From a bacterium (GTDB taxonomy: Bacteria; RBG-13-61-14; DATKZS01), in the NCBI GenBank assembly GCA_963674965.2, contig CAXXFL010000006.1:896001-960000 (forward strand): a stretch of 64,000 bases of DNA, in the 5' to 3' direction. This document shows, in pieces, positions 11,724 through 64,000 of the stretch; within the stretch, counting starts at the first letter, position 1, and each line of letters starts with the position of its first letter. The position numbers and the translations under genes were made by a program. The notes below the pieces were generated by a model. The model worked only from the letters and a program-made list of their open reading frames with translations. It was not told where the DNA came from and did not search any database.

Positions 11724-11965
11724 ATCTGCTGATCTTCCTCCTAATTTCCTACACGTTCGAGGCAATTGGCAAAATGCTTTATCACAACTGATCTTATCAT
11801 AATTAAAGCTTACGATCAGCCTGTATTAAGGGGAGCAAGGTAATTTGTACAATGTAAAGTTGCAGCCCCCCTAAACGAATAGAAACGGTGGTCTCTATAA
11901 AGGGAAAAATGTCCAAACAATCTCGCTCCCATTAGTAAGGCGCCCCCATCGGATGTGAAAACCAC

Positions 11966-12907: not shown

Positions 12908-13554
12908 CTGGATACCTCATCTTTTCGATGAATCAAAGTTCCGAGCTCCATTGCCGTGTCAACACCCAACTCCGTCAGGGAAGAGTTGGCGGGATGGTCG
13001 AAGGTGTGGACGGGCTTGCTCCAGGCGATGGCTTGGCGGGCGAGGTCCTGGGTTTTGCTGCCGGGCTGTGCGTGGACGATGAAGATGGTGGCGGCCAGGG
13101 CGGCGACGAAAAGGTTGCGGCGTTCGGCAAGGGCGGCGGTGGTTCGGTTCTGGCCGGGTGAGAAGGGAGAGAGGATCAGGAGTCGGCCCTGGTCGAGGGG
13201 GGTCTTCCACTCCTTGGGGATGCGCATGGTGTCGATGCTCCGGGCCGGGCAGATCACGATTGGCTGCTTGCCCTTCAGGAGGATGCCCAGGCAATCCTTC
13301 TCCATGGGAGAGTGGAACCCGCCGATCACCGGCACGCCCTGGTCCCGAAGCTCGGTCGCCAGGTCGTAGGTTTTCAGGATCAAATCTCCGGGGCACTTGA
13401 CCGAAGAGAACAGCGCAAGAGTTGGCCGCTCAAGGATGTCCATGTTACCGATGGCTGTGACTGTTTCCGGTGCCTCATATTTAAGGTGAGCCACCAGCGA
13501 CGGTGGGTATCGGGCATTTCCCTTGTCTACGGTCTGTAGTTCACGGCTAGCCAT
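12904..13554 (-). CDS. DprA/Smf-like SLOG domain protein (short form)
   Basis: YPPSL..AIGNMDIL..LALFSS, GGFHSPMEK, AERRNLFVAALA..AQPGSKT. Confidence 0.85.
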   Translation of the reverse strand: MASRELQTVDKGNARYPPSLVAHLKYEAPETVTAIGNMDILERPTLALFSSVKCPGDLILKTYDLATELRDQGVPVIGGFHSPMEKDCLGILLKGKQPIVICPARSIDTMRIPKEWKTPLDQGRLLILSPFSPGQNRTTAALAERRNLFVAALAATIFIVHAQPGSKTQDLARQAIAWSKPVHTFDHPANSSLTELGVDTAMELGTLIHRKDEVSR

Positions 13555-17908: not shown

Positions 17909-17915
17909 TAGTGCC

Positions 17916-20900: not shown

Positions 20901-21299
20901 ATAGAGCTTGACTCGGACTTTCTTGGCCCTGATCTGCCTTGCCAGCCTCTGAAGTCCAGCCTCATCCTCGTTGGTTGGAGTCCCGATAAGCAACTGCTGG
21001 CGGAACTCCTCGGCCAAGCGTTTCTTGAGGCGCATGGCAGTCTGGTTGTCCATCTCGTCGTCACCGTCTGCCGTGCTGAGGGCTTCCTTTAGTTCATCAT
21101 GAGGTAGCCTCTGCATCCCGACCAGGAGACGGCAGCAAGAGTCGTCAGTCCCTTGCCAGCTCTCGATGTAGGAGTCCAGAAGCTTCCAGCCACGAAGATT
21201 GAAGTATCCGACACAGAAGTCGGCCCGTTTTGAAACTTGCAGGGTATCTTTTAATCCGCGTATCAAATGAAATTCAATATTGTCGTAAATTGTAGGCAC
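17916..21299 (-). CDS. PLD nuclease-SNF2/DEAD-box helicase fusion
   Basis: VGYF, LHAKLY..GSSNLT..GELN (PLD); GDVVGLGKT; DESH; SATP; SEGQNLQ; QRAGRVDRIGQ. GTG start at 21299. Confidence 0.9.
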   Translation of the reverse strand: MPTIYDNIEFHLIRGLKDTLQVSKRADFCVGYFNLRGWKLLDSYIESWQGTDDSCCRLLVGMQRLPHDELKEALSTADGDDEMDNQTAMRLKKRLAEEFRQQLLIGTPTNEDEAGLQRLARQIRAKKVRVKLYLRNPLHAKLYLCFRPNEPNFKVVGFLGSSNLTFSGLKVQGELNVDVLEQDACQKLAKWFEDRWEDRFCLDISEELAEIIETSWAREDLIPPYHVYLKMAYHLSQEARSGLSEFNIPKDFGDKLFEFQVAAVKIAAHHLHKRNGVLIGDVVGLGKTLMATAVARIFEDDFGLETLIICPKNLVPMWKDYREGFRLRGKVISISKVIKRLPEMRRYRLVLIDESHNLRNREGKRFRAIQEYIKENDSRVILLSATPYNKSYLDLSSQLRLFLEEERDIGIRPEQLLRDIGETEFIRRHQCSTRSLAAFEKSYYADDWRDLMRLYLVRRTRSFIKDNYAKTDQGNGRKYITYEDGGKAYFPERTPRTVKFSIDDKSPDDQYARLYAEEVVDTINSLNLPRYGLGNYIASTPRNPPNQTEAKQLADLGRAGKRLMGFCRTNLFKRLESSGSAFLQSVERHILRNYIFLHAIENNLPLPLGTQDAAMLDTRITDQDSDQMVGTLFDDDDDNGDSINNHTCLRTEAEFKARAAEVYEEYDKQYGSRFKWLRPGLFVKSLGKDMEKDATALMGILHEAGEWDPKKDEKLSSLFRLLTHTHQGEKVIIFTQFADTVRYLEAQLTDSGIQASAGVTGDSADPTALAWRFSPESNNKRSRVSPEQELRVLVATDILSEGQNLQDCAIVVNYDLPWAIIRLIQRAGRVDRIGQKADKILCYSFLPADGVEKIIRLRQRVRQRLTENAEVVGADEAFFEDDMDEKTAIDLYHEKAGILDDDDQDVDLASRAFEIWKQATEDNPELRKKVEGLPDVIYSTRPHMPSEEEPEGVLCYMRTAEGNDALAYMNKHGDSITESQYEILKIAECGPDTPAIPRHKKHHSLVQEAVRHVAKEEKRVGGQLGRPSGARFRTYTRLDKYIRDLKGTLFEQHANDIQKAIDLIYRFPLRQTAIDMLNRQLRAGVDDDRLAELVLLLKEEGKLCLIEEEVNLQEPRIICSMGMFDKE

Positions 21300-21312
21300 T
21301 CTTAAAACCTCA

Positions 21313-21507
21313 TTATTTGGATTTGATATTCGAACCTTTCCGAACCCATACGTCAATTTCTTCTTTACGGAATTTCCAAAGGCGGCCAACCTTATGAGCC
21401 GGCATGCTCTTGCGAGATATCCACTTATATACCGTGTCCCGCTTTACGCCAAGGTAGGCAGCTATCTCATCCACGGAAAGCCAGCGATCTCCGATGGTGT
21501 CGTTCAT
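21313..21507 (-). CDS. Excisionase-like HTH DNA-binding protein
   Basis: WLSVDEIAAYLGVKRDTVYKWI..PAHKVGRLWKF (HTH_17-type pattern). Confidence 0.9.
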   Translation of the reverse strand: MNDTIGDRWLSVDEIAAYLGVKRDTVYKWISRKSMPAHKVGRLWKFRKEEIDVWVRKGSNIKSK

Positions 21508-39690: not shown

Positions 39691-40914
39691 TTAGAAATTT
39701 CCAAAAGGCCAGGCCATGACTCCCGAACCCAGAGGAAGGGGAGATTCTCCAGGATTGACCACGTAGCCGGGCAGGGCCCCGTCGCCAAAATCCTTCTGGA
39801 AGGTCTTAATCTGGTTCGCCATGGCTGGACGCGGCGTGGCTGAAAGCTTGACCTCGATGGGGACAAGCTTGCTTCCGGTTTCGATGATGAAATCTATTTC
39901 CGTCCCCGCCATGGTGCGCCAGAAATAAATTTCTGGATCAACGCCCCGGTGGGTCAGGGTTTTATATATTTCGGAAAACACCGCCGTCTCCATGATCGCG
40001 CCCCCCATCGGGCCGGAAGCCGCGTGCTCCGGGTCTTTCAATCCGGCCAGATAGCAAAGCGTTCCCAGGTCGGTGAAAAAAACTTTGGGAGATTTGACCA
40101 GCCTCTTTCCCACGTTGGCGAAATAAGGCCTTAGCTCCACCACCTGGAAAGTCGCCTCCAGCACCGAGAGCCAGGCCTTGACCGTGTTCAAGGAAACGCC
40201 CAGGTCGCGGGCCAGTTCCGCCTTGTTGATAAGGCCCGCGCTCCTGGCGGCAAGGAGTCGAAGGAAACTCTGAAACAAAGATAAGTCCCCAACCTGACGA
40301 AGCATCCGAACGTCCCGCTCGAGGTAGGTCTGGACGTAGCCGGCATGGTAAAGACCCGCGTCCCGCTCAGGCCGAGCGGCCAATTCCGGGAAACCGCCTC
40401 GTAGGAAGCTCTTCCATAAATCAAGATATGATTGATTGACGGACAACAAGGCCCCATCGCCGCCCTCCCATGGAAGCCGCGCCTGGGGCTGGCCGAAAAG
40501 TTCCCGACGAGAAAGAGGCAATAAGCGAAGGATGGCCGCCCGACCGGCCAGGGACTCGGTAATTTCCTCGATAAGAAGAAGGTTCTGAGAGCCGGTGAGG
40601 AGGTATTGGCCATATCTTCCCCGGTCCGCGTCGATTTTTTCCTTTATATAAGGGAGCAGATCGGGCGCGTACTGGACCTCGTCGAAAATCACGGGAGGAG
40701 CGTTCAATTCAAGAAAGGAGCGAGGGTCTTCCCTGGCCGCCGCCCACACGTCGGGCGGTTCCATGGAAATATAACGATAATCGTTTCCAAACAAATGCTT
40801 AAGCAGCGTTGTCTTGCCCGATTGACGAGGCCCGGTCAGCACCAGGGCGGGGAACTCCTTCACCGCTTTTTTAAGGACCGATTCCAACGACCTCTCGATA
40901 TAATTATCAACCAT
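39691..40914 (-). CDS. AAA+ ATPase with DUF4143-like nuclease-fold C-terminus (moron)
   Basis: GPRQSGKTT, IFDEVQ, LTGS, ESLAGR, GGFPE, KSPKVFFTDLG, EIDF..IEVK. Confidence 0.9.
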   Translation of the reverse strand: MVDNYIERSLESVLKKAVKEFPALVLTGPRQSGKTTLLKHLFGNDYRYISMEPPDVWAAAREDPRSFLELNAPPVIFDEVQYAPDLLPYIKEKIDADRGRYGQYLLTGSQNLLLIEEITESLAGRAAILRLLPLSRRELFGQPQARLPWEGGDGALLSVNQSYLDLWKSFLRGGFPELAARPERDAGLYHAGYVQTYLERDVRMLRQVGDLSLFQSFLRLLAARSAGLINKAELARDLGVSLNTVKAWLSVLEATFQVVELRPYFANVGKRLVKSPKVFFTDLGTLCYLAGLKDPEHAASGPMGGAIMETAVFSEIYKTLTHRGVDPEIYFWRTMAGTEIDFIIETGSKLVPIEVKLSATPRPAMANQIKTFQKDFGDGALPGYVVNPGESPLPLGSGVMAWPFGNF

Positions 40915-40984
40915 GGAGAGCACCCTTGGTTAATATTATGCATTTTAAGTGCAATTTGTCAAGTTTAAAATGGGCATGGTCCGA

Positions 40985-50766: not shown

Positions 50767-51630
50767 TTATCCGAGGAGCCTGATCTTGGCCAGGATTTCA
50801 GGGCGCGTCACGCCCTGGCCCTGCTCCGACCAGATCAGCCAGCCCGTCTTGAACTTGAGCTTCTGCTCGATGGCCTCGGTCTTGAGCGTCTCCCGCACCG
50901 GGAGCTTGCCGTATTCCTCGTCGGGGATGATGAGAATCTCGTCCAGAGGGGCCGCCGCCGTGAGCAGGATGCCGCCGGTGCCGTAGTTCTTGATCAGACC
51001 CTTGGCCCGAAGCTCGAGCTTGGTCTGAGGGTCCAGGTCCCAGCCGCGCATGTCGTTGAAACGCCGGCCCCGCATCACGATGTATTTCACCGAAAGCTCC
51101 ATGTCCTCGATGATCGAGACGGCCTCGTTGAGGGCCTCCTCGGTGAGCGCGTTCCCGGTCACCTCGACCGTGTTCTCGGCCGGGATAGCCGCCGTGATCA
51201 CGCTGAGCGTGCGCTTGTCGATTTCCTTTCTGATTTCATCGGCCGCCGCCGTCTGCATGTCCGTCAGCGTTCCGATGTTCCCGTGCTTCAACACCGAGAT
51301 GTCGACCATGGGAGCGGAATGGATGCGGTGAGTGGGGAACTCGACCTCGTCCTTTCCCACCTCGGTCTCCTGGGCCTCGCCCTCCTTGCTGATCCAATAG
51401 GCCTTTACCCGGGGCTTTTTCTGGTAGACCGGGCGCTCGCCCTTGGGCAGAGTGTGCTTGGTCAGGAGCAGCGAGGATATCTCCTTGCGCTTGATCTCCT
51501 GCTCGATGGGAGCCGCGATGGCCGCCGCCAGCGCGTGCATGCCCTCGGGGGATTCCAGGGCCTCGCTCATGAGCCTGGCCATGGTCTCCATGTATTCCTG
51601 GCTGTGTACGTTCATCAGGTTCGAATCCAT
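50767..51630 (-). CDS. Major capsid protein (compact HK97-like fold inferred)
   Basis: AYWISKEGE, ADEIRKEID; position after scaffold and decoration genes; strong RBS. Confidence 0.72.
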   Translation of the reverse strand: MDSNLMNVHSQEYMETMARLMSEALESPEGMHALAAAIAAPIEQEIKRKEISSLLLTKHTLPKGERPVYQKKPRVKAYWISKEGEAQETEVGKDEVEFPTHRIHSAPMVDISVLKHGNIGTLTDMQTAAADEIRKEIDKRTLSVITAAIPAENTVEVTGNALTEEALNEAVSIIEDMELSVKYIVMRGRRFNDMRGWDLDPQTKLELRAKGLIKNYGTGGILLTAAAPLDEILIIPDEEYGKLPVRETLKTEAIEQKLKFKTGWLIWSEQGQGVTRPEILAKIRLLG

Positions 51631-52023: not shown

Positions 52024-55000
52024 TTATTTCGCCTCGGCGGACTCGCCGGTGTTCGAAGACACCCGGTTGCGGTAAGCCGCCATGAACCCGGCCTTGAGCT
52101 TGTCCTCAAGCGTCTCCTTTTTGTCATCCACGTCCTTGGGCCGCACCCCGGCGTCACTGCGCATGGGAGGTTCCTGGTCGGATTTCTCGGCCCTGGATTT
52201 TTCCTTGTCGGCGGGAGGGTCTTCCTTCTTTTCGGTCTTTGCCTCGGCCCGACCCTTGATCATCCGCTCGTAGGCGGCCTCGGTCGCGGCAAAAGCGTCG
52301 TCGGTCATTTCCGCCAGACGTTTGAACTCGGCTTCGCGGTCCTCGTCGCTGTCGAAGGCGAGTCCCTGCTTTTCCAGCTTGCGGACGAGTTTCTGCGCCC
52401 GCGAACGGTTGGCCGCCGCCTGCTGTTCAGCCTCGAGTTCCTCGACCCGTTTCTGGAGAGAGGCAACCTGCTTCTTCAGTTCGCCGTTCTCCTTTTCCAA
52501 TTCCTTGATTCGGGTCTTGTCGTCGGTGGAGCCGCCACCTCCGCCCTCGTCCTGTTCTTCTTCCTTGCCTTTGGCGGCCTCGGCCCGCTCGTCTTTCTGC
52601 TTTTCCTTCTCGTCCATGGATGGACCTCCTTTTTCATGGTTTTCGGTTTCCGCGTCGTCAATATCCGCTACCTGGGTTATCCGCGCGTTCTCGTCCGCTC
52701 CCTTCCGGTCAAGAAGGCCCAGCCCGGTAAAAGTCACCCCATGCAGAATTTCGTACACGGGCTTTCCCTGGAATGAGCCTCCCTTGTTCTTCCGCAAATG
52801 AATGCAGTAGTCGGTCTTGTTCCTGACCTTCTTCCCGCACACCGAGCACTCGCCCTCCTCGTAATCGCACTCCATCGATACCTGGGTGATGATCCCGCGC
52901 TTCATCAGCTTGTAGGCCAGCTGGGCGTTCTGGCTGTCACCGGTATAAAGCTCTCCCACGCATTCGACCCGTCCGCCGTTCTCGTCCTCGATGAAGTCCG
53001 CGCCCACGATGCCGCCCACTATGTCGGTGAAGTCCTGCGAGTGCTTCAGGTCGATCTTCTTGTTGATAGCAGTCATGTATCTGGTGGAAAGCTCTTCCGG
53101 AGTGAAGTGGTCGCCGTTCTTGTTGGTCCCGGCCCGGCACAGCACGAAGGTGAATTGGGGGTCTCCGACGTGGTTGCCCATGTCGAGGGCCTCGGTGAAT
53201 AGTTCCTCAGACTCCATGATCTCGATATCGACCGGGACCGTTGTGTGGCAGGCTGCGGCGGACAGCGCCCCCTTGGAACGGGGCGCGCTCCTGGCCTTCG
53301 AGGCCACGAACAACAACTCCTTGGCGTGCTTGCCTTCCCGGCCTATGTCCTTGGCGATGTTATAGTCGACTTCCAGGCCGCTGACCTTGACCTGCCCGAA
53401 ATGATTGCCGAAGATTTCCTTGATCTCGTCCTCGCGGGGGAAGGCCCGGTCCCGGTAGGAGAGGAGAACTGCCCCGTACTTGCCCCGGGCGTCCGATGCC
53501 ATGGTCGTCATCAGTTCCCTGATCGACTCCTTGGTGTACTTCGTCCGGGAAGGGAAACTGCGCCTTGGGTTCGAGCCGATCTTCTTATCGGCCCAGCGGG
53601 TCATCAGCCCCTCCACGAAATGAAGGGAATCCTCGTAATCGTTCGACCCGAACTCCGTGACATAAGGCGGGTCCAGGTAAAGCACGTCCGCGCTGTAGCG
53701 CCTTACCGCCTCCGACGCCTCAAGGTTCGTGGCCTTGCATTCCTCCCCGTTGTCGAACACCAGGTTGTTGAGTTGATTGACCGAACGCCTGAAGGACTCG
53801 ATAAATTTCTTGAGAGGAGGGTTGGAAAGCTGCGACTGCTCCAGGCTGGCCTCCGCTTCCAGGTCCGCTTTCCGCTGCATCTTCGAGCGAGAGAACTGGC
53901 CGAAGGCGCTCTTGGACTTGACCGTTGTCCCCAGCGCCGCCAGCGCCAGATCCTTCTTGTAACCGGAGAGCTTCTGGATGTTGGACCACACCTGGTCGAG
54001 CCACTGGAGCACTGGCCTGGTGTAGTAATAGCCGTAGAAATGGTCCGCGATGAACGTGCCCGCGCCCGGATTGGGGGCGAGAAGCATGTCGATGTCCTCG
54101 TCGGTAAGTTTTTCGCTCGAATTCTCGACAACCGCCCGGGCCAGGTGGTGAGGGTACCTCAAGAGGTCATTGGCCATGACCTTGTATCCCTTTCGCTTCA
54201 GGTTGTAGGCCACGTTGGCCCCGCCCGAAAAAGCGTCAAGCACCGTCTTCGTGCCTTTGGGTATGTGGCTGTCGATCCAGCCCATCATGAGGTACTTGCT
54301 GCCCATGAAACCGGTGACCCGCACTGGGCCGCTTTTCCCGGCCACGCAACTTAAAAGGTCCACGGCGTCATCGAGAGGAGCATCGGCCAGAGCCCGCATG
54401 TTCTCCTCGATTCGCAAGGCCGCCTCGGCCGCCTGCTCGGACTCGTGCTTATCGATCCATTCCCTGGCCTTCTCCTTGCTCCAGCCGTCCGGAGTGTCAT
54501 CGGTCTTTCTGGCGAAACGATAGGCCTGGAGCACCATGCACTTGGGGTCGTGGCCTTCCTGGACGTGTTCTTTCTTAAGCCTCCCGACAATGATCGTGAC
54601 TCCATCCACTCCCTCGAGCGGCTTGGTTCGGAAGCTGTCCTTCTCGAACTGCTCGGGATCGCGCACCCGGTACCGGATCTCATTGTCGGTCTCGTCCCAG
54701 ATGGCCTCGGTATCGAGTTCGCCCTCTGCCCTGTCCTCCAGTGATGCCGCTGCTTTCTGGTCGGCCTTGCCCCGCTTGCAGATGAACAGCCGCTCCTTGG
54801 CGTGGGAGGCGTCACCGTGACGCGAGGTAATCGAGTAATGGTGATCATGCGAGCGCATGGTCGAGTCGTGCCCAAAGGAACTGATGATCCGCTTCATGTC
54901 CTTTTCGTTCGGGTAGGCGTGGTCCCGGTAGGAAATGAGCCAGTGAGGTATGTGCTTGGCCGCGCCCAGGAAGCCCTCGAAAAACTTGTTGGCGTTGGCC

Positions 55001-55899
55001 TTGGTCACGGTTATGTGGTCGGTCTCGTAATGTTTGGTCTTCGAGTCATCCTTGATCGTGAGCCCTTCCCAGTAGGTCATTAGGCCCTCGATAAAGTGAT
55101 AGGACTTTTCGTAGTTCGTGGTCGAAAACTCGGTGGCGTAAGGAGGGTCGAAGTAGACAAGGTCGACCTTCACTCCTGGGAGCAGTTCGTTAACATCCTT
55201 CCGGAATGCCTTGCAGTCCTTGCCGTTGTCGAAAACAAGAGCGTTGATCCGGGCTGCGTTCTTTTTGAAACGCTCCTTGAACTCGTCCGGCGAGTCTTCC
55301 CGCTTGCCGTACCGGGTCGAGGACGAGAAATGCCCGAACCCGCCCTTTCCGGACATGCAGGTTTTGCCCAGGGCGAAGAGCGCTATGTCCTTCTTGTAGC
55401 CGTCCAGCTTGTCGATATTGGCCCTGATGGTGTCGATCAGTCCGTGGACCCCGTTGGCGAAGAAGATTCCCTTGAACTTGTCCCGAACAAAAGTCTCGGC
55501 CTTGGGGTTGTCCGAAAGGAGCATCTCCAGGTCCTCGTCGGAGAGCCGGACCTTCTTGTTCTCGATAATCGCCCGCGCCGCATGGAAGCAGTAGCGCAGC
55601 CGGTCGTTGGAGATTACCCGAAGTCCCTTGGTCTTGTACATATAGGCCACCACCGCCGAGCCGGAGAAAGCGTCCAACGCCGACTCCACGCCCTCCGGTG
55701 TATGCTTCCAGATCCAGTCCACCAGCTTTTGCTTGGAGCCGATGTAGTTGGTGATGTACTTGGGACGCTTGCCCGGGGGAAGTTCGTCTTGAGAAACTTC
55801 CCTGGCCTGGGCCTCGAGTGCTTCGAAGTCCAGGTTTAGTGCCGCGTCGGTCTCCAGCAGGAAGGCCAACCGTTCGAAATCAGTGGCAAAAATTTCCAT
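52024..55899 (-). CDS. Fusion: two D12-class (FokI-like) adenine methyltransferases + small domain + prohead protease-like domain + scaffold
   Basis: YIGSK/DAFSGS/YFDPPY; FMGSK/DAFSGG/YLDPPY; NKNGDHF..IDLKH..VSMEC..CSVC..CIH..FTGLGLL..GAD; charged coiled-coil tail. Confidence 0.85.
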   Translation of the reverse strand: MEIFATDFERLAFLLETDAALNLDFEALEAQAREVSQDELPPGKRPKYITNYIGSKQKLVDWIWKHTPEGVESALDAFSGSAVVAYMYKTKGLRVISNDRLRYCFHAARAIIENKKVRLSDEDLEMLLSDNPKAETFVRDKFKGIFFANGVHGLIDTIRANIDKLDGYKKDIALFALGKTCMSGKGGFGHFSSSTRYGKREDSPDEFKERFKKNAARINALVFDNGKDCKAFRKDVNELLPGVKVDLVYFDPPYATEFSTTNYEKSYHFIEGLMTYWEGLTIKDDSKTKHYETDHITVTKANANKFFEGFLGAAKHIPHWLISYRDHAYPNEKDMKRIISSFGHDSTMRSHDHHYSITSRHGDASHAKERLFICKRGKADQKAAASLEDRAEGELDTEAIWDETDNEIRYRVRDPEQFEKDSFRTKPLEGVDGVTIIVGRLKKEHVQEGHDPKCMVLQAYRFARKTDDTPDGWSKEKAREWIDKHESEQAAEAALRIEENMRALADAPLDDAVDLLSCVAGKSGPVRVTGFMGSKYLMMGWIDSHIPKGTKTVLDAFSGGANVAYNLKRKGYKVMANDLLRYPHHLARAVVENSSEKLTDEDIDMLLAPNPGAGTFIADHFYGYYYTRPVLQWLDQVWSNIQKLSGYKKDLALAALGTTVKSKSAFGQFSRSKMQRKADLEAEASLEQSQLSNPPLKKFIESFRRSVNQLNNLVFDNGEECKATNLEASEAVRRYSADVLYLDPPYVTEFGSNDYEDSLHFVEGLMTRWADKKIGSNPRRSFPSRTKYTKESIRELMTTMASDARGKYGAVLLSYRDRAFPREDEIKEIFGNHFGQVKVSGLEVDYNIAKDIGREGKHAKELLFVASKARSAPRSKGALSAAACHTTVPVDIEIMESEELFTEALDMGNHVGDPQFTFVLCRAGTNKNGDHFTPEELSTRYMTAINKKIDLKHSQDFTDIVGGIVGADFIEDENGGRVECVGELYTGDSQNAQLAYKLMKRGIITQVSMECDYEEGECSVCGKKVRNKTDYCIHLRKNKGGSFQGKPVYEILHGVTFTGLGLLDRKGADENARITQVADIDDAETENHEKGGPSMDEKEKQKDERAEAAKGKEEEQDEGGGGGSTDDKTRIKELEKENGELKKQVASLQKRVEELEAEQQAAANRSRAQKLVRKLEKQGLAFDSDEDREAEFKRLAEMTDDAFAATEAAYERMIKGRAEAKTEKKEDPPADKEKSRAEKSDQEPPMRSDAGVRPKDVDDKKETLEDKLKAGFMAAYRNRVSSNTGESAEAK

Positions 55900-55978
55900 T
55901 CAGTTCTCCGGTAGCGGGCTTCTCACAAGTCCTGCCTGTAAAATTTGCGTGGGCTTGAATGAAGCTCCTATAGGTTAC

Positions 55979-56005
55979 ATACCGGAAACGAACTAAAAGT
56001 GTCGG
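55979..56005 (-). promoter_or_regulatory. Putative phage late promoter, copy 2 (CCGACACTTT-N10-CCGGTAT)
   Basis: Same motif and spacing as 39551-39577; 80 bp upstream of the methyltransferase-protease gene. Confidence 0.65.
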
Positions 56006-56024
56006 AAAAAAGTTGAAGAAAAAT

Positions 56025-56080
56025 GAAAAAACGACCCCCTCGCCACGTTCGGCAAAAAGCCTACTTGCCGCGAGGGGGTC
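56025..56080 (-). terminator. Possible intrinsic terminator of the DGR transcript
   Basis: 11-bp IR GACCCCCTCGC (56033-56043) / GCGAGGGGGTC (56070-56080) followed by a T run on the minus strand. Confidence 0.5.
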
Positions 56081-56198
56081 TTTCATATTCGGCCCGGCAA
56101 AATACCGGCCCGGGAAGGGGGCCAGGACTGATGGGGCTCGCTCCCCGGGAAATACTCCCGAGGACTCCGGCCATGCCTCCACGTCTCCGTGAAGGAAC

Positions 56199-56324
56199 TC
56201 AGTCCCCAGCACAACGGAATCCTATGTTGTTGTTCTGGTTAGTAGGCGTATTGTTGTTCCGGTTTGCTACGCGCAGGTTGTTCGTATTGTTGTTCCAATT
56301 GCCGCCGCGCAAAACGCGATACGT
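56199..56324 (-). ncRNA. DGR template repeat (TR)
   Basis: 126-bp ungapped match to 57825-57950; 14 Asn (AAY) codons in the target frame; overlaps the RT stop codon by 1 nt. Confidence 0.96.
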
Positions 56325-57400
56325 TATCGGCCACCCTCCCCAATCACGAATACAAACGATGGCAGCATTTGCGCTCTGAGTTTGTAGCTGTCGGCATAGG
56401 ACGCGTGAGACAGCCATGAAGTAACCGAGGCACCGATCTCCGAAAGCGCGACCTCGCCTCTCGAATATTCATCCTGCAACCGCCTCATCCTGGCCTTGAA
56501 GCGTCTGACGTTTTCCTTGCGCACCTTGGTCATGTGCGGCAGGTGCCTGAACCCGAGGAACTCCACTCCCTCCTTCACCGTGTATATCCTGCTCTTACCG
56601 TCATGGATTGAAAGTCGAAGCCCGGCCAGGTAATCGACCACCGCGGACCTGATCTCGTTCAGCCGATTCTTGTCGTCGCCGAAGATGCAAAAGTCGTCCA
56701 CATAGCGGACATACGGCCCGGCCCTGAGCTCCTCCTTAACCCAGTGGTCGAAGTCATTTAGGTAAAGGTTGGCGAAGAACTGGCTGGTCAGGTTGCCCAC
56801 CGGGATGCCGCGTCTCCTTTCATGCGGCGTGAACAGGCCGTCGCCGGGGTAGTAAATGATCGGCCCCTTGTCATTGAAACAGCGCGAGCCGATGATCTCG
56901 GAAAGCAGCCACATCGCGTCCCGGTCCGCGATCCTGCGCGAAAGTTTCCCGATCAGTATCTCGTGGTCAATGCTCTGGAAATATTTGCGGATGTCGCACT
57001 TGAGCACATACTTGTGGCGCTTGAGGAACTCCCGGAATCGCATGAGCGCTGCATGCGTGCCCTTGCCCTTTCTGCAGGCATAGCTGTCGGGGATGAAGCT
57101 TTTATCGAACAGCGGTTCGATAATATTGGTCACCGCGTGATGGACCACCCGGTCGCGATAGGGCGCGGCAGAAATCAGCCGCTTCTTTGCGTCCTTGACA
57201 ATGAAGTCGTGGTACGGGCCGTGATGATAGATTTTATGTAGCAGTTCGTCATGAAGCCGAAACAGGTTCCTCTCCAGGTCCATGTTGAAAATGAGCGTGC
57301 TCTCCCGGTAGCGCTTGCCATTCTGTGCTTTTTTGGAAGCCAGCAAGAGGTTCTGAAAACTCGCGATCTCGGGGAAGATGTTTTTGAAAGTCTTGGCCAA
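56324..57400 (-). CDS. DGR reverse transcriptase
   Basis: [46 protein letters not shown] (DGR-type SQ), RYVDDF, FLG. Confidence 0.96.
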
Positions 57401-57409
57401 TACTCCGCC

Positions 57410-57754
57410 TCACGTCTTCTTTGCCGCCTGCTTGCGCCAGCCGCCCACCTGGCTGCCAAGCTCGGTAATCATCTTCATCACGTGCTCGTAGCCCTTGTTG
57501 GAAAGAGCACCAAGGTCACGGCTAAGGCGAAGAAGAAAGCGAAGACGCTCCAGCCGTCGATTTGCTTCATCAAGCAGGTGTACTTTATCACGACGATATG
57601 ATGCCTCTGTTAAAATCTCAAGAATCGAAAGGCAATTGTCCACGATCCTCTCTCCGAGCGAATACTTAAGATCTTTTGGAAACTTTGAAACCCTTGGCAA
57701 AACCTCTTTGCACAGATCATACGCCTTTTGAACAGCGGGAAGTTCTTTCTTCAT
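57410..57754 (-). CDS. avd: DGR accessory variability determinant (four-helix bundle)
   Basis: 114 aa basic; KAYDL..FPK..KYSLGERI..LRFLLRLS..ELGSQVGGW; directly upstream of RT. Confidence 0.92.
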   Translation of the reverse strand: MKKELPAVQKAYDLCKEVLPRVSKFPKDLKYSLGERIVDNCLSILEILTEASYRRDKVHLLDEANRRLERLRFLLRLSRDLGALSNKGYEHVMKMITELGSQVGGWRKQAAKKT

Positions 57755-57766
57755 TTTTAAAAATTT

Positions 57767-57794
57767 TTTAATGGGGGCTTACGCCCCCATTAAA
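57767..57794 (-). promoter_or_regulatory. DGR target-recognition hairpin/cruciform downstream of VR
   Basis: Perfect 12-bp stem TTTAATGGGGGC/GCCCCCATTAAA with 4-nt loop (GTAA on minus strand), 30 nt after the target stop. Confidence 0.8.
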
Positions 57795-57824
57795 GTGTAA
57801 GAGTTAAAAAGGACAAAAGAGTAA

Positions 57825-57950
57825 TCAGTCCCCAGCACAACGGAAGCCTATGAAGACGCTCTGGGCAGTAGGCGAAAGGTTGTACCGGTTCGCCACGCGC
57901 AGGGTGCCCGAAGTGATGTGCCAACCCCCGCCGCGCAAAACGCGATACGT
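57825..57950 (-). repeat. DGR variable repeat (VR)
   Basis: 24 differences from TR, 23 at TR adenines; 14 amino-acid changes. Confidence 0.96.
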
Positions 57951-59138
57951 ACCTGACGCGGGACCGGGAGGATCGTTGGTGGGACTTGTACTGTAGTAAT
58001 CGCTCTGATACCAGTCGTTGACCCATTCATAAACATTACCCCCCACATCATAAAGACCGTAACCATTAGCAGGATAGCTTTCAACCTCGCTGGTATCTCC
58101 AATACACCAATCGTAATTTGCGTCAACACATGCTGTAGCTGTATCTCCCCAGGGATAGCGTTTGCCGGACAGGCCGCCACGGGCAGCGTACTCCCACTCG
58201 GCCTCGGTGGGCAGTCTCTTGCCCGCCCAGGCGCAATAGGCCGTGGCCTGATTCCAGTCAACCCAGATAACAGGAAAATTGTCATAGGTCGGATTACCGT
58301 AATAAGAGCCGCGAGAATAACTTGAAGAATAGCCGGGCGCCGTGCATCCCCCTCCGCTCACGCAAGCCGCGTACTCCGAGTTGGTCACCTCATGAACGTC
58401 CATGTAGAAGTCCGAGGTGATGCAAACGTTATGCACCGGAAGTTCATCGCTGCTTCCCTCGCTGAACGCGTCGCCCATGTTGAAACAGCCGGAGGGGATA
58501 AGGGCCATTGGGCCGACAGTGCTTCCTCCCTGGCAGTCAGGGTCATCACCGTCGATCTTGCCGTCGCAGTCATTATCGAAACCGTCGTCACAGACTTCGG
58601 CCGCGCCGGGGTTTATGGAGGCGTCGACATCGTTGCAATCCGTGGTGGCCGTGGCCCCGTCAACGACCTTTGAGTAACCGTCCCCGTCGTAATCGCTCTT
58701 ATTGTAAAAGGCCGTAAGCCAGCCTCCTTCTACCTTCAAGGCATAAGGCACGCTGGCGATCCTGGACCGGGGCGACATCTCGCCATCGCTTTCAACCTCG
58801 ACTCCCATCCACACGTCCTGGTGGTTCTGGAAGACAGCGGAGAGGCTTGGCTCGGTACCCGGCGTTACCGTGCCCGAGCCGATGAGAACATTATAAAGCC
58901 CGCCGGTGACCGCCACGTCCTCCTGGAGAACGGTCAGATAAGCGGTCCCGCCCGTTTCAACACCATAAAACGCGAACGTCAGATCAACGGTAGACCCGTC
59001 CGCAAGAGGCTGGCCTGCAGAGTTCGTGAGCCGCCCCTGGTAATTGATAAGCTGCGGAGCGGACTGCGCCCAGGCAATGCCCACCACCACGGCCATAACA
59101 AAAACACCAACCAACGCCATTCCAATCTTAGCCCTCAT
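57825..59138 (-). CDS. DGR target: signal peptide + beta domain + MopE-like Cys/Asp motif + FGE-sulfatase (CLec) domain
   Basis: MRAKIGMALVGVFVMAVVVGIAWA-QS; INYQGRL; DCND..INPGAAEVCDDGFDNDCDG; F.MG..E.PVH, EVTN..Y, RLPTEAEWEYAARGG, GNVYEW, RGG.W..GFRC. Confidence 0.93.
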   Translation of the reverse strand: MRAKIGMALVGVFVMAVVVGIAWAQSAPQLINYQGRLTNSAGQPLADGSTVDLTFAFYGVETGGTAYLTVLQEDVAVTGGLYNVLIGSGTVTPGTEPSLSAVFQNHQDVWMGVEVESDGEMSPRSRIASVPYALKVEGGWLTAFYNKSDYDGDGYSKVVDGATATTDCNDVDASINPGAAEVCDDGFDNDCDGKIDGDDPDCQGGSTVGPMALIPSGCFNMGDAFSEGSSDELPVHNVCITSDFYMDVHEVTNSEYAACVSGGGCTAPGYSSSYSRGSYYGNPTYDNFPVIWVDWNQATAYCAWAGKRLPTEAEWEYAARGGLSGKRYPWGDTATACVDANYDWCIGDTSEVESYPANGYGLYDVGGNVYEWVNDWYQSDYYSTSPTNDPPGPASGTYRVLRGGGWHITSGTLRVANRYNLSPTAQSVFIGFRCAGD

Positions 59139-59203
59139 GACTTAATCCCCCTTCTTCGAGATTTATAGACAATTATCCATATGTTACCATGCTGTAAATT
59201 ACA

Positions 59204-59231
59204 ATACTATCCCCCCCCCCCCGATTGTCAA
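59204..59231 (-). promoter_or_regulatory. Sigma70-type promoter with G12 tract in the spacer
   Basis: TTGACA (59231-59226)-ATC-G12-A-TAGTAT (59209-59204), 16-bp spacer, 65 bp upstream of the target ATG. Confidence 0.7.
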
Positions 59232-59241
59232 CCTCCGATTA

Positions 59242-59571
59242 TTAAAATAGTGATCGCAGCTTAGCGGCGGCAAAAGCTTCCGCGGATGCTAATTCTTCGA
59301 TCTCGACAATTGGCCCTCGCATGCCTTTATAGGGTGATAGGGTTTTCTGGTGGTACGCCAGGAAATCCTCGGGAAGCGATTTGACTCCAGCTTCCACAAG
59401 CCGGTTGATGACCCAGTCGGCCTCCTCCTGAGCTTCTTGGTTGCCGGGGAAGTACTTGATGACCAGGTCGAGTCCGGGGCCGGGCCCCTGGACCCAGACG
59501 CCGATTGGCTCGTAATGGGGATCGCGAATGCGGTCGCGGAGCGCGTACTCGATCATGTAGCGGAGCTTCAT
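59242..59571 (-). CDS. Hypothetical protein downstream of MuF (candidate immunity)
   Basis: 109 aa; ATGA overlap with 59568-60038. Confidence 0.6.
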   Translation of the reverse strand: MKLRYMIEYALRDRIRDPHYEPIGVWVQGPGPGLDLVIKYFPGNQEAQEEADWVINRLVEAGVKSLPEDFLAYHQKTLSPYKGMRGPIVEIEELASAEAFAAAKLRSLF

Positions 59572-60038
59572 TCCCACTCCTCCGCGATCCGGATGTGTTC
59601 TTCAAGGATGCTCTGATCGGCGGTCTCAAACCTCTCCTTGTTCTCGGCCTTGTACTTTTGCCAGGCCTTCCAGTCTTCGACCATCCCCGGCTCCGAAACC
59701 TCCATGATCAATTCCACGTGGAAGCGCCGGTCCATGTCATCGAACAAATCAATCAGGTAGGTGTCGTCCTGATCCCAGCGCCGGACCTTGATGGTGTGCG
59801 AATACTGGAACCCTTGGTCGTAGCCAGCCATCTTGAAAAGGAGCCAGAAGTCCACGTGGGTCATTTCGCCCGAGGCGTTGAAAATCGGGGCCACGCGGGT
59901 GACCGTGTAGCTGTCAACCAGGCCCAGGCGGATCGACTCACTGCCGCGCTCCCGCATCTCGATCCACGATCCTTGCTGGTTGAACTCCGCGAACAGGGCC
60001 TGCAGTCGCTCTTTTTCCTTTTCGATAAACTCCTTCAT
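59568..60038 (-). CDS. Acidic hypothetical protein immediately downstream of MuF (candidate immunity)
   Basis: 156 aa from MKEFIEKEK, 2 bp after the MuF stop, GAGGTG RBS. Confidence 0.65.
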   Translation of the reverse strand: MKEFIEKEKERLQALFAEFNQQGSWIEMRERGSESIRLGLVDSYTVTRVAPIFNASGEMTHVDFWLLFKMAGYDQGFQYSHTIKVRRWDQDDTYLIDLFDDMDRRFHVELIMEVSEPGMVEDWKAWQKYKAENKERFETADQSILEEHIRIAEEWE

Positions 60039-60040
60039 GC

Positions 60041-63000
60041 TCACCTCGCAATCACAATATCCTCGACCTTGCGGCCGTCGGGAAGTTTCACGATACCCTT
60101 CTTGCGGAATGAATCCAGTATCTTTTTCCGCTCGTTCTGGCTCCCGACCACGATGACCTCGATGTTGTCCAAGAGCGTCACCGAATACTTGAATATGGTC
60201 TCGTTGCCGCTCTTCTTCGCGAACCTTTTCCACTCCTCGGGAGTGCTGCCGCGATGCCGCGTCACGTAGTCGTCCACCACTTTGCCGTAAGCGTCATGGT
60301 CGTAACTTATCGCGTCCATCCGGCGCAGGAGCCGCTTCTTGAAGTACAGCCCGGTTTCGCCCGGCCCTCTTTCCGGCACCTTCTTTATCCGCGTGAAAAA
60401 GTAGCTTGCTCCGCCGGTTCTCATGTCCTCTTCGGGCGACATTCCTCCCACCGGGACCCCGGCCCGCAGTTTCTCGACGGTGCTTACCGCCGCGCCGTTC
60501 TGCTCGATCACCTTGTCGAGGAATGAGGACACGCTCTCTCCATTGGTGAGGTGGTGATGGAGCGCATAGCCTTTCATCTGCTTCTCCAGGTCCTCGTCCG
60601 AGATATCGAACCGGTATTGATGCCTGTAACCGGCGCTTTTGCCGGGCTGCTTGAACGCCAACTGGTGCTCGCCGATGGGATCATAACCCGGCATGCGAGT
60701 CAGGTCTTTCACGCCCAGGCGTTTTTCCCAGAACGACCGCATCTCCCGGACACGGACTTCCTTGCTCGCGGACCGCCGATCAAGGTCGGCGACTATCTTC
60801 TTGTATGCCGCGTCCTTGTCTACCTTGGACAGATAAGCCTGCTTGTGAAGGTAGAGCAGTTCGGCGTCCTCGGCGGTAGCCGGGGTGGAGTTGAGTCCAA
60901 GGCTCTCCATGTGCTCCATCGCCCGCTCCATGCTCTTCGCGTCCGGGCGATCCGGCAGAACTATCTCGAACTCGCCCCGCTGGGCATAGAGGTTCTTCTC
61001 CGACCAGGGGCGGTACACGGCCTTTATGCCGTCGCCGAAGTCAACTTCGTACTGCTCGCCAGCCTTCATGCTGTGGCCCTTGAACATGGCGGAATTGTCC
61101 GAGTTCTCGTTCACCACCACCAGGTCGCCCTTCTTCAGTTCGCGTTTCTCGTGCAGGACCTTCGAGCGAGTAACCTTGAAACCCGCGTCCTTGGCCTTAG
61201 CCGGGCGAGGCGATTCGTGCTTCTTGGTATAGGCACCGAACATTTCATTTATCGGCTTCTTGGCCCGCTCGGCATCCTCGATCTTGGAGAGCCAGGCCAG
61301 GTACTCGTTGGCCATGCCCCGAACGTCTGGGTCGCTCGACTGGGCCAGCTTCTGGAGCGCCTTTTCGTAGCCCTTGGCCTTGTTCAGCTTGTCCTGGTTG
61401 TACTTCTTGTCGTCTTTGTGGTGGTTGATGGTCTTGGCGGCGGCCAGGATGTCATCGGCGAACCGGTCCTCGGGCAAGGTGTCGCCGACCTTGGTCGAGG
61501 CGGGATCAATCCCGGCCTTCTTGAGCGCCTCCAGGATTTTCGCGTCGGCCTCGGGCCGGACCTTCATTTTGACCACGGTCCGCTCCTTGCCCTTGGCTTT
61601 TTCAACGAAAATGAGAGCGTTCTGGTCCTCGATGTCATCTTCGTCAATGGGAAGCGCTTTTCCCTGCCAACCAAGGCGCCTTACTTCCTCGATTAATTTT
61701 TCATCCTCCGGACCGAGGCGTCCCTTTTTGGCGATAGGTTCAGCCGCGTCCTCGAAACGGAACCCCTTTTTGCCAAGGACGTCTGAGTAGAAAGATTCGA
61801 AGTCGCGACGAAGGTTGCGCTTTCGATCCAGGGCCGTCTCGTAAAAAGCCTTCTTTTTCGCTTCGTCCTTCCCGAACCGGCCCTCGACGTATGGGCGCAG
61901 CATATCCAGATAGTCGTCATCCGATATTTTTTCGACTTCGCGGATGTACTTCAGCGTGACGGAGGGGTCGGGTTTAACCTTGCCTTGCTTGGCCGCCCTG
62001 AAGACCGCGTTGTAAAAAGGCTCCTGCTCGCCGAACTTCTGGTTCGGGTGATAGTCGATGGAAAGCTTGTCCTCGCCCAGGTGCTTGAGCAACTGCCCTT
62101 TGTCGATGCCGTAAATCTTGCCGCTCCTGGAGCGGAGGAACTGCTTGGAGTGGCCGTCGTGATTAGAGATGAGCCAGTCGATCACGTGCTCGCGCTGGAT
62201 CTGTTCAAGCTCAAGGGTGGTGAGGTCGGTGGGGTCCATGCCCGAGAAGTCGATCTTGGACTGAAGGTCGGTGCGCCATTTCTGGATCGAGCCGAGCTTT
62301 CCCTTGAGTCGAATGGTACGGACTTCGATGGCGTCAGGATCGATCATCCGGGCGATTTTGTAAGCGGCCTCCTCGCCGTAAGCGATGAACTCGTCGCCTG
62401 ACTTCTCGACCGGTTTGAACATCCACTTGTCGCCGTTCTCGTCGGTCCAGAATTCCTTGCTGTGAGCGCCTCCCACCTGGGCTTTCCCGGCGGGCTTGAA
62501 CTTGCCCGCTTTCCTTTTTGCCTCCCAGGCCTTGTCCGCATCCTCGAATTCCGATCCCTTCTTGGTGAAGGTCGGCTTTGCCACTGGTTCAGGCTCGGGC
62601 GGAGGCGGGGCTTTTACCTCGGGTTTCGGTTTCGATGCTTTCTTCTTGCCGCCGTGTTTCTCGGCCCAGGCGGCATGCTTTTCCTCGATGGCTGCCTTGG
62701 CCGCTTCGACCTTCTTTGGATCGGTCTCGCTGAACAGGGTGACCAGTTCATCCTTGTTCGCCCACTGCCAGTGCTTGAGCTTGGTGTCCTTGGCCAGGGT
62801 CTTGAGGTCGCCCACCTTCATGCCCGCCAGTTGCTCCTGAAACACCTTCTTCTTGAGCGCCAGTTCCTTGGCATGTGATTCAAGCATCTCCTGCGGCAAA
62901 ACACCGCCTTCTTCGAGCGCGGTTTCTGCATCCTTAACCGCCGCCAGGAAGTCTTCGTATTGGGTGGGCGACTTGGGCAGCACAACCTTGGCAGATGACT

Positions 63001-64000
63001 CTTCCACGCTCTCCTTGGCTTTTTTGATCTTCTCCTTGGCGGCGGTCTCGACCGCCTCCTTCTTTGCTTTCTCGGCAAGTTCCTGGCCGGCGGATTTCTC
63101 GATGGCCTTGGCGAGTTGCTCCTTGTTCTTGAGCGGCCCGATGTGATGCTTTTTCTTGGCCGCCATGAGGTCTTTTCCCTGAAGGCCCGAGTGGTCGATG
63201 CCAGGCTCCAGTTCATCCAGGAGATCGATCACGTCCTGCTTGGTCATATTGAGGGAGATGCCCTTTTCCTTCGCCATCTCCTTTAGCTCCGCCGCCGATA
63301 AACCCTGCAGTCCCTTTGGATCGGGAATCTTCTTCAACTGTTCGGCAACCTGCTGGGCCTGCTTGAGCGCAGATTGTTTCTCGGCCAGGAGCTTGACCAG
63401 TTCTTCCTTGGTTCTTAGAAGCCCTATCTTGTGCTGCTTCAGCTTTGCTTTGAGCGCCTGGCCTGACAGGTCCGAGTGGTCGATGCCGGGTTCTGCCTGA
63501 TCCAGTAGCTTGATAAAGTCGGATTTGGTGCGGGCTATGGAAACGCCGTTCTGTTTGCTAAGGGCCTGCAACTGCTTTGAGGTAAGGGCTTCCAGATCGC
63601 CGATCCCTCCCTTTTCGAATGCGGCCTTCAGCTTGGCGTCCTCGGTTGCTTTGGCCTTGGCTTGTCCCTCGATGGCTTGTGGCGGGAGGATGCAGGCGGA
63701 AGGTTCATCGGCCGCCACCGCGCCCAACTCTCCACCGCAGATTTTTAAAGGCCAGGCCGGGAGGTTGCTGCAGCGACAATTGGGGTGAGCGGGTTGCTGT
63801 GGGAAGCGGTCGATGTCATAAGTCTTGCCGTCGAGTGGACCGCACACAGGACATACCCGCTCGTCCTCCATGGTCATCCATTCGAGCTTTCGAACGCCAA
63901 CGTGCTTATGGAACTTGATCCTCCCCTGGTTGTGAGCTCGCAGTACTTCGGTCCGGGCTATGACCTCCATCCGGTATTGGGCCTTGCTGAACACCTTCGA
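60041..64000 (-). CDS. MuF/SPP1 gp7-like minor head protein with long C-terminal extension (5' end outside window)
   Basis: IARTE..W....DERVCPVC..HPNCRC; five helix-extension-helix-like repeats; kinase-like WMFKP..E..DWLISNHDGH..IDKG; C-terminal LHHHL..VST..YFFTR..NETIF. Confidence 0.85.
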   Translation of the reverse strand, partial: SKVFSKAQYRMEVIARTEVLRAHNQGRIKFHKHVGVRKLEWMTMEDERVCPVCGPLDGKTYDIDRFPQQPAHPNCRCSNLPAWPLKICGGELGAVAADEPSACILPPQAIEGQAKAKATEDAKLKAAFEKGGIGDLEALTSKQLQALSKQNGVSIARTKSDFIKLLDQAEPGIDHSDLSGQALKAKLKQHKIGLLRTKEELVKLLAEKQSALKQAQQVAEQLKKIPDPKGLQGLSAAELKEMAKEKGISLNMTKQDVIDLLDELEPGIDHSGLQGKDLMAAKKKHHIGPLKNKEQLAKAIEKSAGQELAEKAKKEAVETAAKEKIKKAKESVEESSAKVVLPKSPTQYEDFLAAVKDAETALEEGGVLPQEMLESHAKELALKKKVFQEQLAGMKVGDLKTLAKDTKLKHWQWANKDELVTLFSETDPKKVEAAKAAIEEKHAAWAEKHGGKKKASKPKPEVKAPPPPEPEPVAKPTFTKKGSEFEDADKAWEAKRKAGKFKPAGKAQVGGAHSKEFWTDENGDKWMFKPVEKSGDEFIAYGEEAAYKIARMIDPDAIEVRTIRLKGKLGSIQKWRTDLQSKIDFSGMDPTDLTTLELEQIQREHVIDWLISNHDGHSKQFLRSRSGKIYGIDKGQLLKHLGEDKLSIDYHPNQKFGEQEPFYNAVFRAAKQGKVKPDPSVTLKYIREVEKISDDDYLDMLRPYVEGRFGKDEAKKKAFYETALDRKRNLRRDFESFYSDVLGKKGFRFEDAAEPIAKKGRLGPEDEKLIEEVRRLGWQGKALPIDEDDIEDQNALIFVEKAKGKERTVVKMKVRPEADAKILEALKKAGIDPASTKVGDTLPEDRFADDILAAAKTINHHKDDKKYNQDKLNKAKGYEKALQKLAQSSDPDVRGMANEYLAWLSKIEDAERAKKPINEMFGAYTKKHESPRPAKAKDAGFKVTRSKVLHEKRELKKGDLVVVNENSDNSAMFKGHSMKAGEQYEVDFGDGIKAVYRPWSEKNLYAQRGEFEIVLPDRPDAKSMERAMEHMESLGLNSTPATAEDAELLYLHKQAYLSKVDKDAAYKKIVADLDRRSASKEVRVREMRSFWEKRLGVKDLTRMPGYDPIGEHQLAFKQPGKSAGYRHQYRFDISDEDLEKQMKGYALHHHLTNGESVSSFLDKVIEQNGAAVSTVEKLRAGVPVGGMSPEEDMRTGGASYFFTRIKKVPERGPGETGLYFKKRLLRRMDAISYDHDAYGKVVDDYVTRHRGSTPEEWKRFAKKSGNETIFKYSVTLLDNIEVIVVGSQNERKKILDSFRKKGIVKLPDGRKVEDIVIAR

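Follow-up and report, generated by a model that had tools for sequence, protein, structure and literature searches.

A complete diversity-generating retroelement (DGR) was found on the minus strand, at positions 56199-59138, of a 64,000-nt window of a bacterial genome (assembly GCA_963674965.2, contig CAXXFL010000006.1). The genome comprises 6.5 Mb in seven contigs, and the window corresponds to C6:896001-960000; coordinates without a contig prefix are window positions. The element lies in an integrated prophage, and its target gene encodes a protein of 437 amino acids with a putative signal peptide. We think it likely that this is a cellular-type DGR carried as cargo in the head module of the prophage, that its secreted target belongs to a protein family of the host and is a binder expressed by the lysogen rather than a part of the virion, and that the element most likely also diversifies chromosomal members of the same family in trans.

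The genes are in the order target-Avd-RT-TR. The target gene (57825..59138) is followed by the gene of Avd (57410..57754, 114 amino acids), which matched Pfam bAvd (E 1.7e-19; 70.7 bits, cut-off 40), NCBIfam NF033474 (98.3 bits, cut-off 80) and the PHROG family 'Avd protein of DGR'. Next comes the gene of a reverse transcriptase (RT; 56324..57400, 358 amino acids), which matched RVT_1 (E 3.7e-27) and phrog_1423 (E 3.7e-122). The RT contains the motif VGNLTSQ, which would correspond to the DGR-type signature (I/V/L)GxxxSQ. The template repeat (TR) is 126 nt long with 41 adenines (56199..56324), and its first base is the last base of the RT stop codon. Comparison with the TR placed the variable repeat (VR) in the final 41 codons and the stop codon of the target gene (57825..57950). 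The two repeats differ at 24 of 126 bases. In the TR, 23 of these bases are adenines and one is a C, and the hypergeometric chance of this adenine bias is about 2e-14. The TR adenines sit mostly in AAC and AAT codons. As 23 codons of the VR are variable, about 5e21 different proteins are possible. An adenine-specific TR/VR pair, an adjacent DGR-type RT, an Avd, a target of C-type-lectin fold and a hairpin were thus all found at this locus.

The hairpin (57767..57794) begins about 30 nt past the target stop codon and stands between the target gene and avd. It has a 12-bp stem with six G-C pairs, a 4-nt loop (GTAA) and a T-run after it, and the same hairpin follows five genes of the target's family. 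It fits the description of DGR hairpins given in PMC3240598, namely GC-rich stems of 7-10 bp with 4-nt loops at 4-34 bp from the VR, except that the loop deviates from the consensus GRNA at its second position. It is a candidate for the target-recognition cruciform of the DGR, for a terminator, or for both. Directly 3′ of the TR there is another conserved structured element (56090..56172), in which an outer helix encloses a hairpin and a second hairpin follows. It is kept in five related chromosomal DGRs and after one chromosomal paralogue of the target. RNAalifold predicted 26 pairs for it, eight of them with compensatory changes. An Rfam scan of 55800-59400 gave one chance-level match below the gathering score and no family for this element. 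The element is presumably part of the DGR RNA. It may match the spacer region of the BPP-1 DGR RNA that primes cDNA synthesis.

The target protein consists of four parts, all of which had been named in a first-pass annotation of this DNA and were recovered here. Its leader (amino acids 1-24; 59067-59138) has two basic residues, a 15-residue window of mean Kyte-Doolittle hydropathy 2.86 and then A-W-A followed by QS. In an AlphaFold model, which was used for coarse domain limits only, residues 2-24 form a lone separate helix, and the aligned full-length homologues have retained the leader and its A-x-A site. The call of a signal peptide is based on this heuristic, on the conservation in homologues and on the model. 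The second part, the beta-rich N-domain with the INYQGRL motif (amino acids 25-165; 58644-59066; beta-rich at residues 32-127 in the model), matched NCBIfam NF053851, Bdello_MAT_N, below its threshold (residues 17-107, 37.5 bits, cut-off 60). The same profile was matched by 26 of 27 family members at E <= 1e-3, with an E of 6.5e-11 for the best homologue. The resemblance to Bdello_MAT_N, as judged from these profile scores, is real yet distant, and the threshold for membership of the MAT family is not reached. A protein atlas look-up of residues 25-165 gave a best score of 0.84, which is below the meaningful level. The Cys/Asp motif (amino acids 167-196; 58551-58640) matched Pfam PF11617, Cu-binding_MopE (43.3 bits, cut-off 27). 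The C-terminal domain (amino acids 211-435; 57834-58508) matched Pfam FGE-sulfatase, of C-type-lectin fold, with E 6.8e-60. A profile of the whole family matched formylglycine-generating enzymes (FGEs) in PDB (E ~1e-62), the Treponema variable protein 2y3c (E 2.9e-28) and MopE 2vov (E 5e-5). In the family alignment, C434 is the only invariant cysteine within the VR. The catalytic cysteine pair of FGEs presumably falls in the stretch that is the hypervariable VR here. The genome encodes Omp85 proteins and the host is therefore a diderm.

The element that hosts this DGR is apparently an integrated, complete myovirus-like prophage, as judged from its gene content. Integrase, repressor, replication, packaging, head, tail and lysis genes were found in one block inside a contig of 1.25 Mb. 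The major head protein (50767-51630; PHROG and Pfam matches), a head-module protein of 1291 amino acids with two D12-class adenine-methyltransferase domains (52024..55899; Pfam and PHROG matches; kept in related phages) and the MuF-type minor head, or 'polyvalent', protein (60041..64000 and past the window end; whole open reading frame (ORF) 1523 amino acids; Phage_Mu_F, E 1.4e-12; PHROG head-morphogenesis families) are all on the minus strand. Both giant head-module proteins, the double D12 fusion with its long charged tail and the MuF protein, are kept across the phage group. On the major-head side, genes for neck, sheath, tube, tape measure, baseplate, endolysin, a 1197-amino-acid DUF4815 protein and amidoligase-type proteins follow on the same strand, and on the MuF side two small conserved phage ORFs separate the MuF gene from the DGR. 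Beyond the window are a terminase-like gene and genes for a primase, a RecD-type helicase, a PD-(D/E)XK nuclease and a LexA-like repressor. A large serine recombinase with DUF2924 lies at C6:983.9-986.1 kb; cellular sugar-nucleotide genes come after it, and the genes past C6:986 kb are cellular. The cassette sits between the MuF gene and the major head gene, with the start of the sheath gene 9.5 kb off and the likely fibre genes about 28 kb off, which agrees with the earlier remark that the target is away from the tail genes. With structural genes on either side, the DGR is phage-associated in the conservative sense of Wu 2018. A second DGR target in the tail-fibre genes was considered and rejected, as a blastn search with the TR against the whole genome gave no second match in the prophage.

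We compared the locus with 80 IMG/VR loci whose major head protein is 71-91% identical to that of this prophage. Among them, 38 span the junction between the phage gene that flanks the cassette upstream (orf111; 59242..59577, minus strand; no family match, 35-76% identity in related phage loci) and the methyltransferase fusion that flanks it downstream. None of the 38 carries a target, Avd or RT at this junction. The gap measures at most 346 bp in 32 of them and 1.2-4.2 kb in the other six (L137, L144, L145, L165, L170 and L192), which hold other cargo: the AbiE toxin-antitoxin parts AbiEi and AbiEii, a Ser/Thr kinase, a P-type ATPase with EIIA, and HSP20 with a SpoIIE phosphatase. In the closest relative (L123), 87 bp stand where the window has 3.3 kb; DNA homology ends at 59329 and resumes at 56027, and relative to the related phages the inserted cassette is placed at 56028..59241. 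One related phage locus has an RT of only 25% identity, and it lies away from the junction. The junction is a cargo hotspot of this phage group. None of the 38 related loci across the junction has the cassette, and the target is accordingly no conserved component of the virion. Moreover, a search of IMG/VR with the target gave no relatives, a search that may omit the window's own record, and in a phage collection the target matched nothing beyond its lectin domain (25-40% identity; hits in Microcystis phages and in others, annotated as 'kinase').

The RT pointed to a cellular origin. Its nearest relatives in GTDB genomes are 73, 70, 69, 68 and 66% identical and are on contigs of metagenome-assembled genomes titled Deltaproteobacteria or Myxococcales, compared with 41% for the best viral relative. 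All the RT relatives of 44-73% identity are within target-Avd-RT cassettes. In the eight loci examined, the targets are fusions of caspase, NACHT or KAP-NTPase domains to FGE domains or small FGE proteins. The genes around all eight are of housekeeping type (for NAD kinase, MgsA, Nuo subunits, an aldehyde oxidoreductase and similar proteins), and no phage Pfam family was found near these DGRs among the 49 of 98 picked ORFs that were scanned, in which short ORFs and most Avd and RT genes were omitted. The target family was also found in all four other genomes of the same family and all six of the same order that were searched, and same-family genomes hold RT/TR fragments 80-92% identical to the RT and TR of the prophage. 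On these comparisons, the cassette is of cellular lineage and was captured by the prophage. The first-pass annotation had suggested both the comparison of the RT with cellular DGRs and a cellular protein captured by the phage; the chromosomal setting of the nearest RTs, the 38 related loci without the cassette and the eight chromosomal paralogues described below all favour this suggestion.

A cassette made of promoter, secreted variable protein, Avd, RT, TR and 3′ RNA element would thus have been captured at the cargo hotspot in the head module. If it works like the DGRs studied elsewhere, RT and Avd would copy the TR-containing RNA into cDNA and misread its adenines. The cDNA would then take the place of the VR in the last part of the target gene. 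Homology up to the stop codon, together with the GC hairpin beyond it, would direct this exchange, and 23 codons would be rewritten on what, in those systems, is the ligand-binding face of the C-type-lectin domain. The product would be exported by the Sec pathway in the diderm host. It is probably held at the cell surface through its N-domain, which is distantly similar to the surface-proximal N-domain of Bdellovibrio MAT fibres, and it would be a binder expressed by the lysogen instead of a virion part.

We searched the genome of the host with the target protein and found 42 places at E <= 0.001. Nine of them, including the target itself, are full-length genes of 60-94% identity; the remaining family genes share the lectin half only or the N-domain only. 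A search for chromosomal paralogues sharing the N-terminal domain, also proposed earlier, therefore yielded eight further full-length genes, and NF053851 was matched at 22 places in the genome. These eight share the leader of the target, and most of the lectin-only copies have a lipobox. The full-length paralogues stand among housekeeping genes such as those for MnmA, RNase III, TyrRS and transketolase, and the paralogues all keep the leader or a lipobox. At C2:335647-339468 (L020) there is a tandem array of three lipoprotein-type FGE-domain genes. The genome (97.6% complete) has one complete RT domain, which is in the prophage, and two other RVT_1 matches that are half-domains. It has one intact Avd, also in the prophage, and one 48-residue remnant. 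There is one TR, the only TR-like sequence with intact AAC and AAT codons. Decayed cassettes were seen as 5′ stumps of avd after the genes C6:1174751 and C2:335647. At C4:79326-80743 (L023:9327-10744), a full-length family gene without hairpin or avd has its VR joined directly to a downstream flank of TR type (81% over 171 nt). This arrangement would be expected from VR-by-TR recombination that deletes avd and RT, and we read it as the scar of a lost chromosomal cassette.

The target gene has a promoter-like site of its own (59204..59231, minus strand; TTGACA, 16 nt, TAGTAT; 10 of 12 positions matched in a consensus scan). This site and the 5′ leader are conserved upstream of most of the full-length paralogues, with G-runs of different lengths. 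Poly-G runs were found in the spacers between -35 and -10 of family promoters at 59211-59222 (G12, in the target promoter), C6:1174665-1174678 (G14), C2:271856-271864 and C2:269892-269899, and their lengths vary between paralogues. Only seven G/C runs of at least 10 occur in the 6.5-Mb genome, and two of them are in family promoters; of the runs of at least eight, 4 of 136 fall 77-86 nt upstream of family start codons. The placement and lengths of the runs suggest slipped-strand phase variation as a second layer over DGR variation. A limited literature search for DGRs combined with phase variation or homopolymeric tracts gave only an unrelated paper.

Two chromosomal VRs match the TR of the prophage. 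The VR at C6:1175939-1176064 lies 222 kb away from the cis VR, 190 kb past the recombinase end of the prophage, and all of its 25 mismatches to the TR are at adenines. The VR at C2:337085-337210, on another contig, has 23 mismatches, again all at adenines. Both VRs have what Wu 2018 required of remote targets, that is, A-to-N differences only and no other DGR. The other paralogues have from 7 to more than 19 non-adenine mismatches of 85. The three matching VRs also share with the TR the synonymous codons near the stop, and the other paralogues are without them. Over the 500 nt that precede the VR, the C2 gene and the prophage copy are only 78.6% identical, yet within the VR 85 of 85 non-adenine bases match the TR. 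Anything other than homing from this TR, or from an identical one, would hardly account for so perfect a match. Since the prophage has the sole RT, Avd and TR and two chromosomal VRs match the non-adenine bases of the TR, we think that the prophage DGR probably rewrites chromosomal family members in trans as well.

The C6 copy (C6:1174751) added information on timing. Its 856 nt ahead of the VR and its 166 nt behind it are identical to the prophage copy, with 10-28% divergence further out. Within the VR the two differ at 29 positions, of which 28 are TR adenines. Contigs publicly available for the probable source sample end precisely at the boundaries of the identity tract; their depth is about doubled on the shared tracts and single on the prophage VR. 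A collapse of the two C6 copies during assembly was rejected by the twofold k-mer depth over the shared tracts, so the near-identity is not an assembly artefact. From this pattern it follows that a recent recombination joined the prophage and C6 copies and that at least one of the VRs was rewritten afterwards. Because 29 VR differences stand against zero substitutions in 1,022 nt of flanks, the activity of the DGR is very recent on the timescale of point mutations. The tract dates this activity; taken alone, it is no proof that the chromosomal copy was a homing site.

Several observations weigh against the reading given above. The putative Sec leader was judged by a heuristic only, the AlphaFold model on an alignment of 27 sequences is poor (mean pLDDT 60.4, pTM 0.48), and none of the 22 matches of NF053851 in the genome is above the curated cut-off. 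The cis VR has one non-adenine (C-to-G) difference from the TR. For the prophage copy, the public contigs, a form of sequence that hides rare VR variants, contain one VR sequence only, whose depth equals that of the flanks, and a highly mixed population is not indicated. The same recent gene conversion that made the flanks identical could have brought the A-only VR to C6:1175939. The locus of C6:1174751 may once have had its own machinery, because a truncated Avd is kept there. In the C2 array, the middle gene has the A-only VR and no hairpin, whereas the first gene has a hairpin and an avd stump and shows 10 non-adenine mismatches. This is the opposite of what hairpin-dependent homing predicts; in BPP-1 the hairpin is needed for efficient homing, according to PMC3240598.

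Some of these points would be accounted for if the prophage DGR acted on its adjacent target only, the chromosomal A-only VRs being relics of decayed cassettes or copies made by gene conversion from the prophage. The avd stumps at C6:1174751 and C2:335647, the VR joined to a TR flank at C4:79326, the identity tract of 1.1 kb, which testifies to recent recombination between the prophage and C6 copies, and the RT/TR fragments in same-family genomes are all compatible with it. We regard this explanation as somewhat unlikely. The VR at C2:337085 matches at all 85 non-adenine positions despite a divergence of 21% in its flanks, where no conversion tract is seen; had an older, different TR left it as a relic, it should have drifted like its neighbour (10 of 85); and no other TR, RT or intact Avd remains in the genome. 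Alternatively, the cassette may be an inactive passenger that looks intact but no longer retrohomes, in a prophage that may be defective. That the public contigs show one VR sequence, at the depth of a single copy, and that the cis VR has one non-adenine mismatch would fit this. Among the sequencing runs, no RNA run was listed as containing the stretch, which speaks neither for nor against activity. Nevertheless, the frames of RT, Avd and target are open and full-length relative to homologues, and the 29 VR differences beside unchanged flanks speak for very recent homing, so that we consider inactivity improbable. It is very improbable that the target is a virion component, either receptor-binding or head-decorating as in BPP-1, with a hydrophobic N-terminus that is no export signal. 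The gene does lie within a structural block on the strand of the head genes, and phage DGR targets are usually receptor-binding proteins of the virion, as stated in PMC8144416 and PMC6199706. However, the cassette is missing from every related locus that covers the junction, the gene shares its promoter-like site with the chromosomal paralogues, and a terminator-like hairpin separates it from avd. The eight full-length paralogues among housekeeping genes, the A-x-A leader kept across the family, and the lack of IMG/VR relatives, together with matches in the phage collection that are confined to the lectin domain, also oppose a role in the virion. A cellular-type DGR carried as cargo, with a secreted target of a host family, is the reading that we prefer.

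The prophage appears to carry two further insertions. An AAA_14/DUF4143 ATPase at 39691-40923 apparently interrupts the tail module, and an AbiEi/AbiEii pair (C6:962565-964363) apparently lies inserted between a 549-amino-acid ORF beside the MuF gene and the terminase-like gene. To the left of the tail and amidoligase genes there is a defence-like block (8289-21389), which may belong to the prophage, with a STAND NTPase (1158 amino acids), an Eco57I/MmeI-type methylase (1202 amino acids) and an SNF2/PLD helicase (1157 amino acids). IS110 and DDE transposases are further left, and restriction, STAND and transposase genes fill positions 1-21400. Three ORFs of 80 amino acids with 274-nt spacing, preceded by one of 71 amino acids, at 2433-3470 suggest a tandem repeat between the transposase genes.

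The system resembles several known ones in part. Like the TvpA DGR of Treponema denticola, it has its VR in an FGE-type C-type-lectin domain, as shown by the match to 2y3c, and a single RT and TR for several scattered paralogues; seven non-adjacent targets are described there (Wu 2018, PMC5758913). In contrast to TvpA, the machinery here is in a prophage, and the N-terminus consists of a putative Sec leader, a MAT_N-like beta domain and a MopE-like motif. With the Mtd DGR of the Bordetella phage BPP-1 it shares Avd, RT, TR, adenine mutagenesis, a C-terminal VR in a lectin fold, a temperate tailed phage as carrier and, by the description in PMC3240598, a GC-rich hairpin past the VR whose loop has 4 nt. 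The target of BPP-1 is the tip of a tail fibre without export signal, whereas here a host-type, putatively secreted protein is varied and the tail genes are untouched; the order target-Avd-RT-TR is different too, and the RT is at most 41% identical to phage RTs. The clade 5 cellular DGRs of aggregate-forming bacteria such as Thiohalocapsa PB-PSB1 (Dore 2024, PMC10907252) are similar in the caspase-, NACHT- and KAP-NTPase-FGE targets that occur among the nearest RT relatives, and in that incomplete loci and diversification in trans are described in that paper. They differ in being chromosomal and in having sensors of STAND or conflict-system type where the target here is a small, putatively secreted protein; the likeness lies in the target types.

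The DGRs with type V pilin-like adhesins on Bacteroides prophages and integrative and conjugative elements (10.1101/2024.11.15.621889) are alike in that a DGR on a mobile element varies a binder of the bacterial surface or periplasm, exported there by a signal peptide and here probably so, which in the terms of that work amounts to horizontally transferred 'evolvability'. Among the DGRs with pilin-like targets reported there, 201 of 287 (70%) are prophage-encoded. The protein family, the RT lineage and the phylum are different, and chromosomal targets at a distance from the element were not found in that report, whose main text never has 'remote' or 'in trans'. The MAT fibres of Bdellovibrio, as described in PMC10769870, start with a signal peptide, putatively present here too, and likewise have a conserved beta-rich N-domain (about 130 amino acids) before a variable tip and many paralogues. 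Here, by comparison, there is no fibre shaft or S74 domain and the scores are below the cut-off, and the tips of MAT fibres vary by domain swapping and not by a DGR.

Two generalizations from surveys of DGRs are touched by this locus. According to Benler 2018 (PMC6199706), the targets of 92 phage DGRs were without detectable transmembrane regions or signal peptides. The first-pass annotation had taken it as established that such targets lack Sec signals, and this stands as a statement of that survey; it is not absolute, given the pilin-like proteins of the Bacteroides prophage DGRs (10.1101/2024.11.15.621889). The account in Wu 2018 (PMC5758913) is that DGRs with targets more than 100 kb away were without phage association, with one exception, and that targets at such distances are expected to be absent for phage-associated DGRs. 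The method of the survey in PMC8144416 was blind to remote targets. The locus crosses both lines in one well-assembled genome, since a cellular-lineage cassette with a putatively secreted target rides on a prophage and chromosomal genes match its template. The precedents, namely the mobile Bacteroides DGRs and the trans diversification proposed for clade 5, soften the surprise as far as those reports describe them. What the sequence of this genome adds is a phage-borne DGR that holds the only machinery of the genome and has apparent remote targets on the chromosome.

For experiments the locus is clean material: it offers three VRs that match, sister cassettes in decay and a tract of recent recombination by which the last homing events can be dated. 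Tentatively, we also propose a wider view, in which the prophage may be the sole keeper of the hypermutation machinery for a chromosomal family of surface binders, so that variation in trans would depend on the phage, prophage and chromosomal copies would recombine, and each gene might in addition be switched by its poly-G run, giving a two-layer system that a virus could transfer. If the action in trans is true, a temperate phage would deliver targeted hypermutation of host genes as a trait of lysogenic conversion, and the variability of the host family would depend on the phage.

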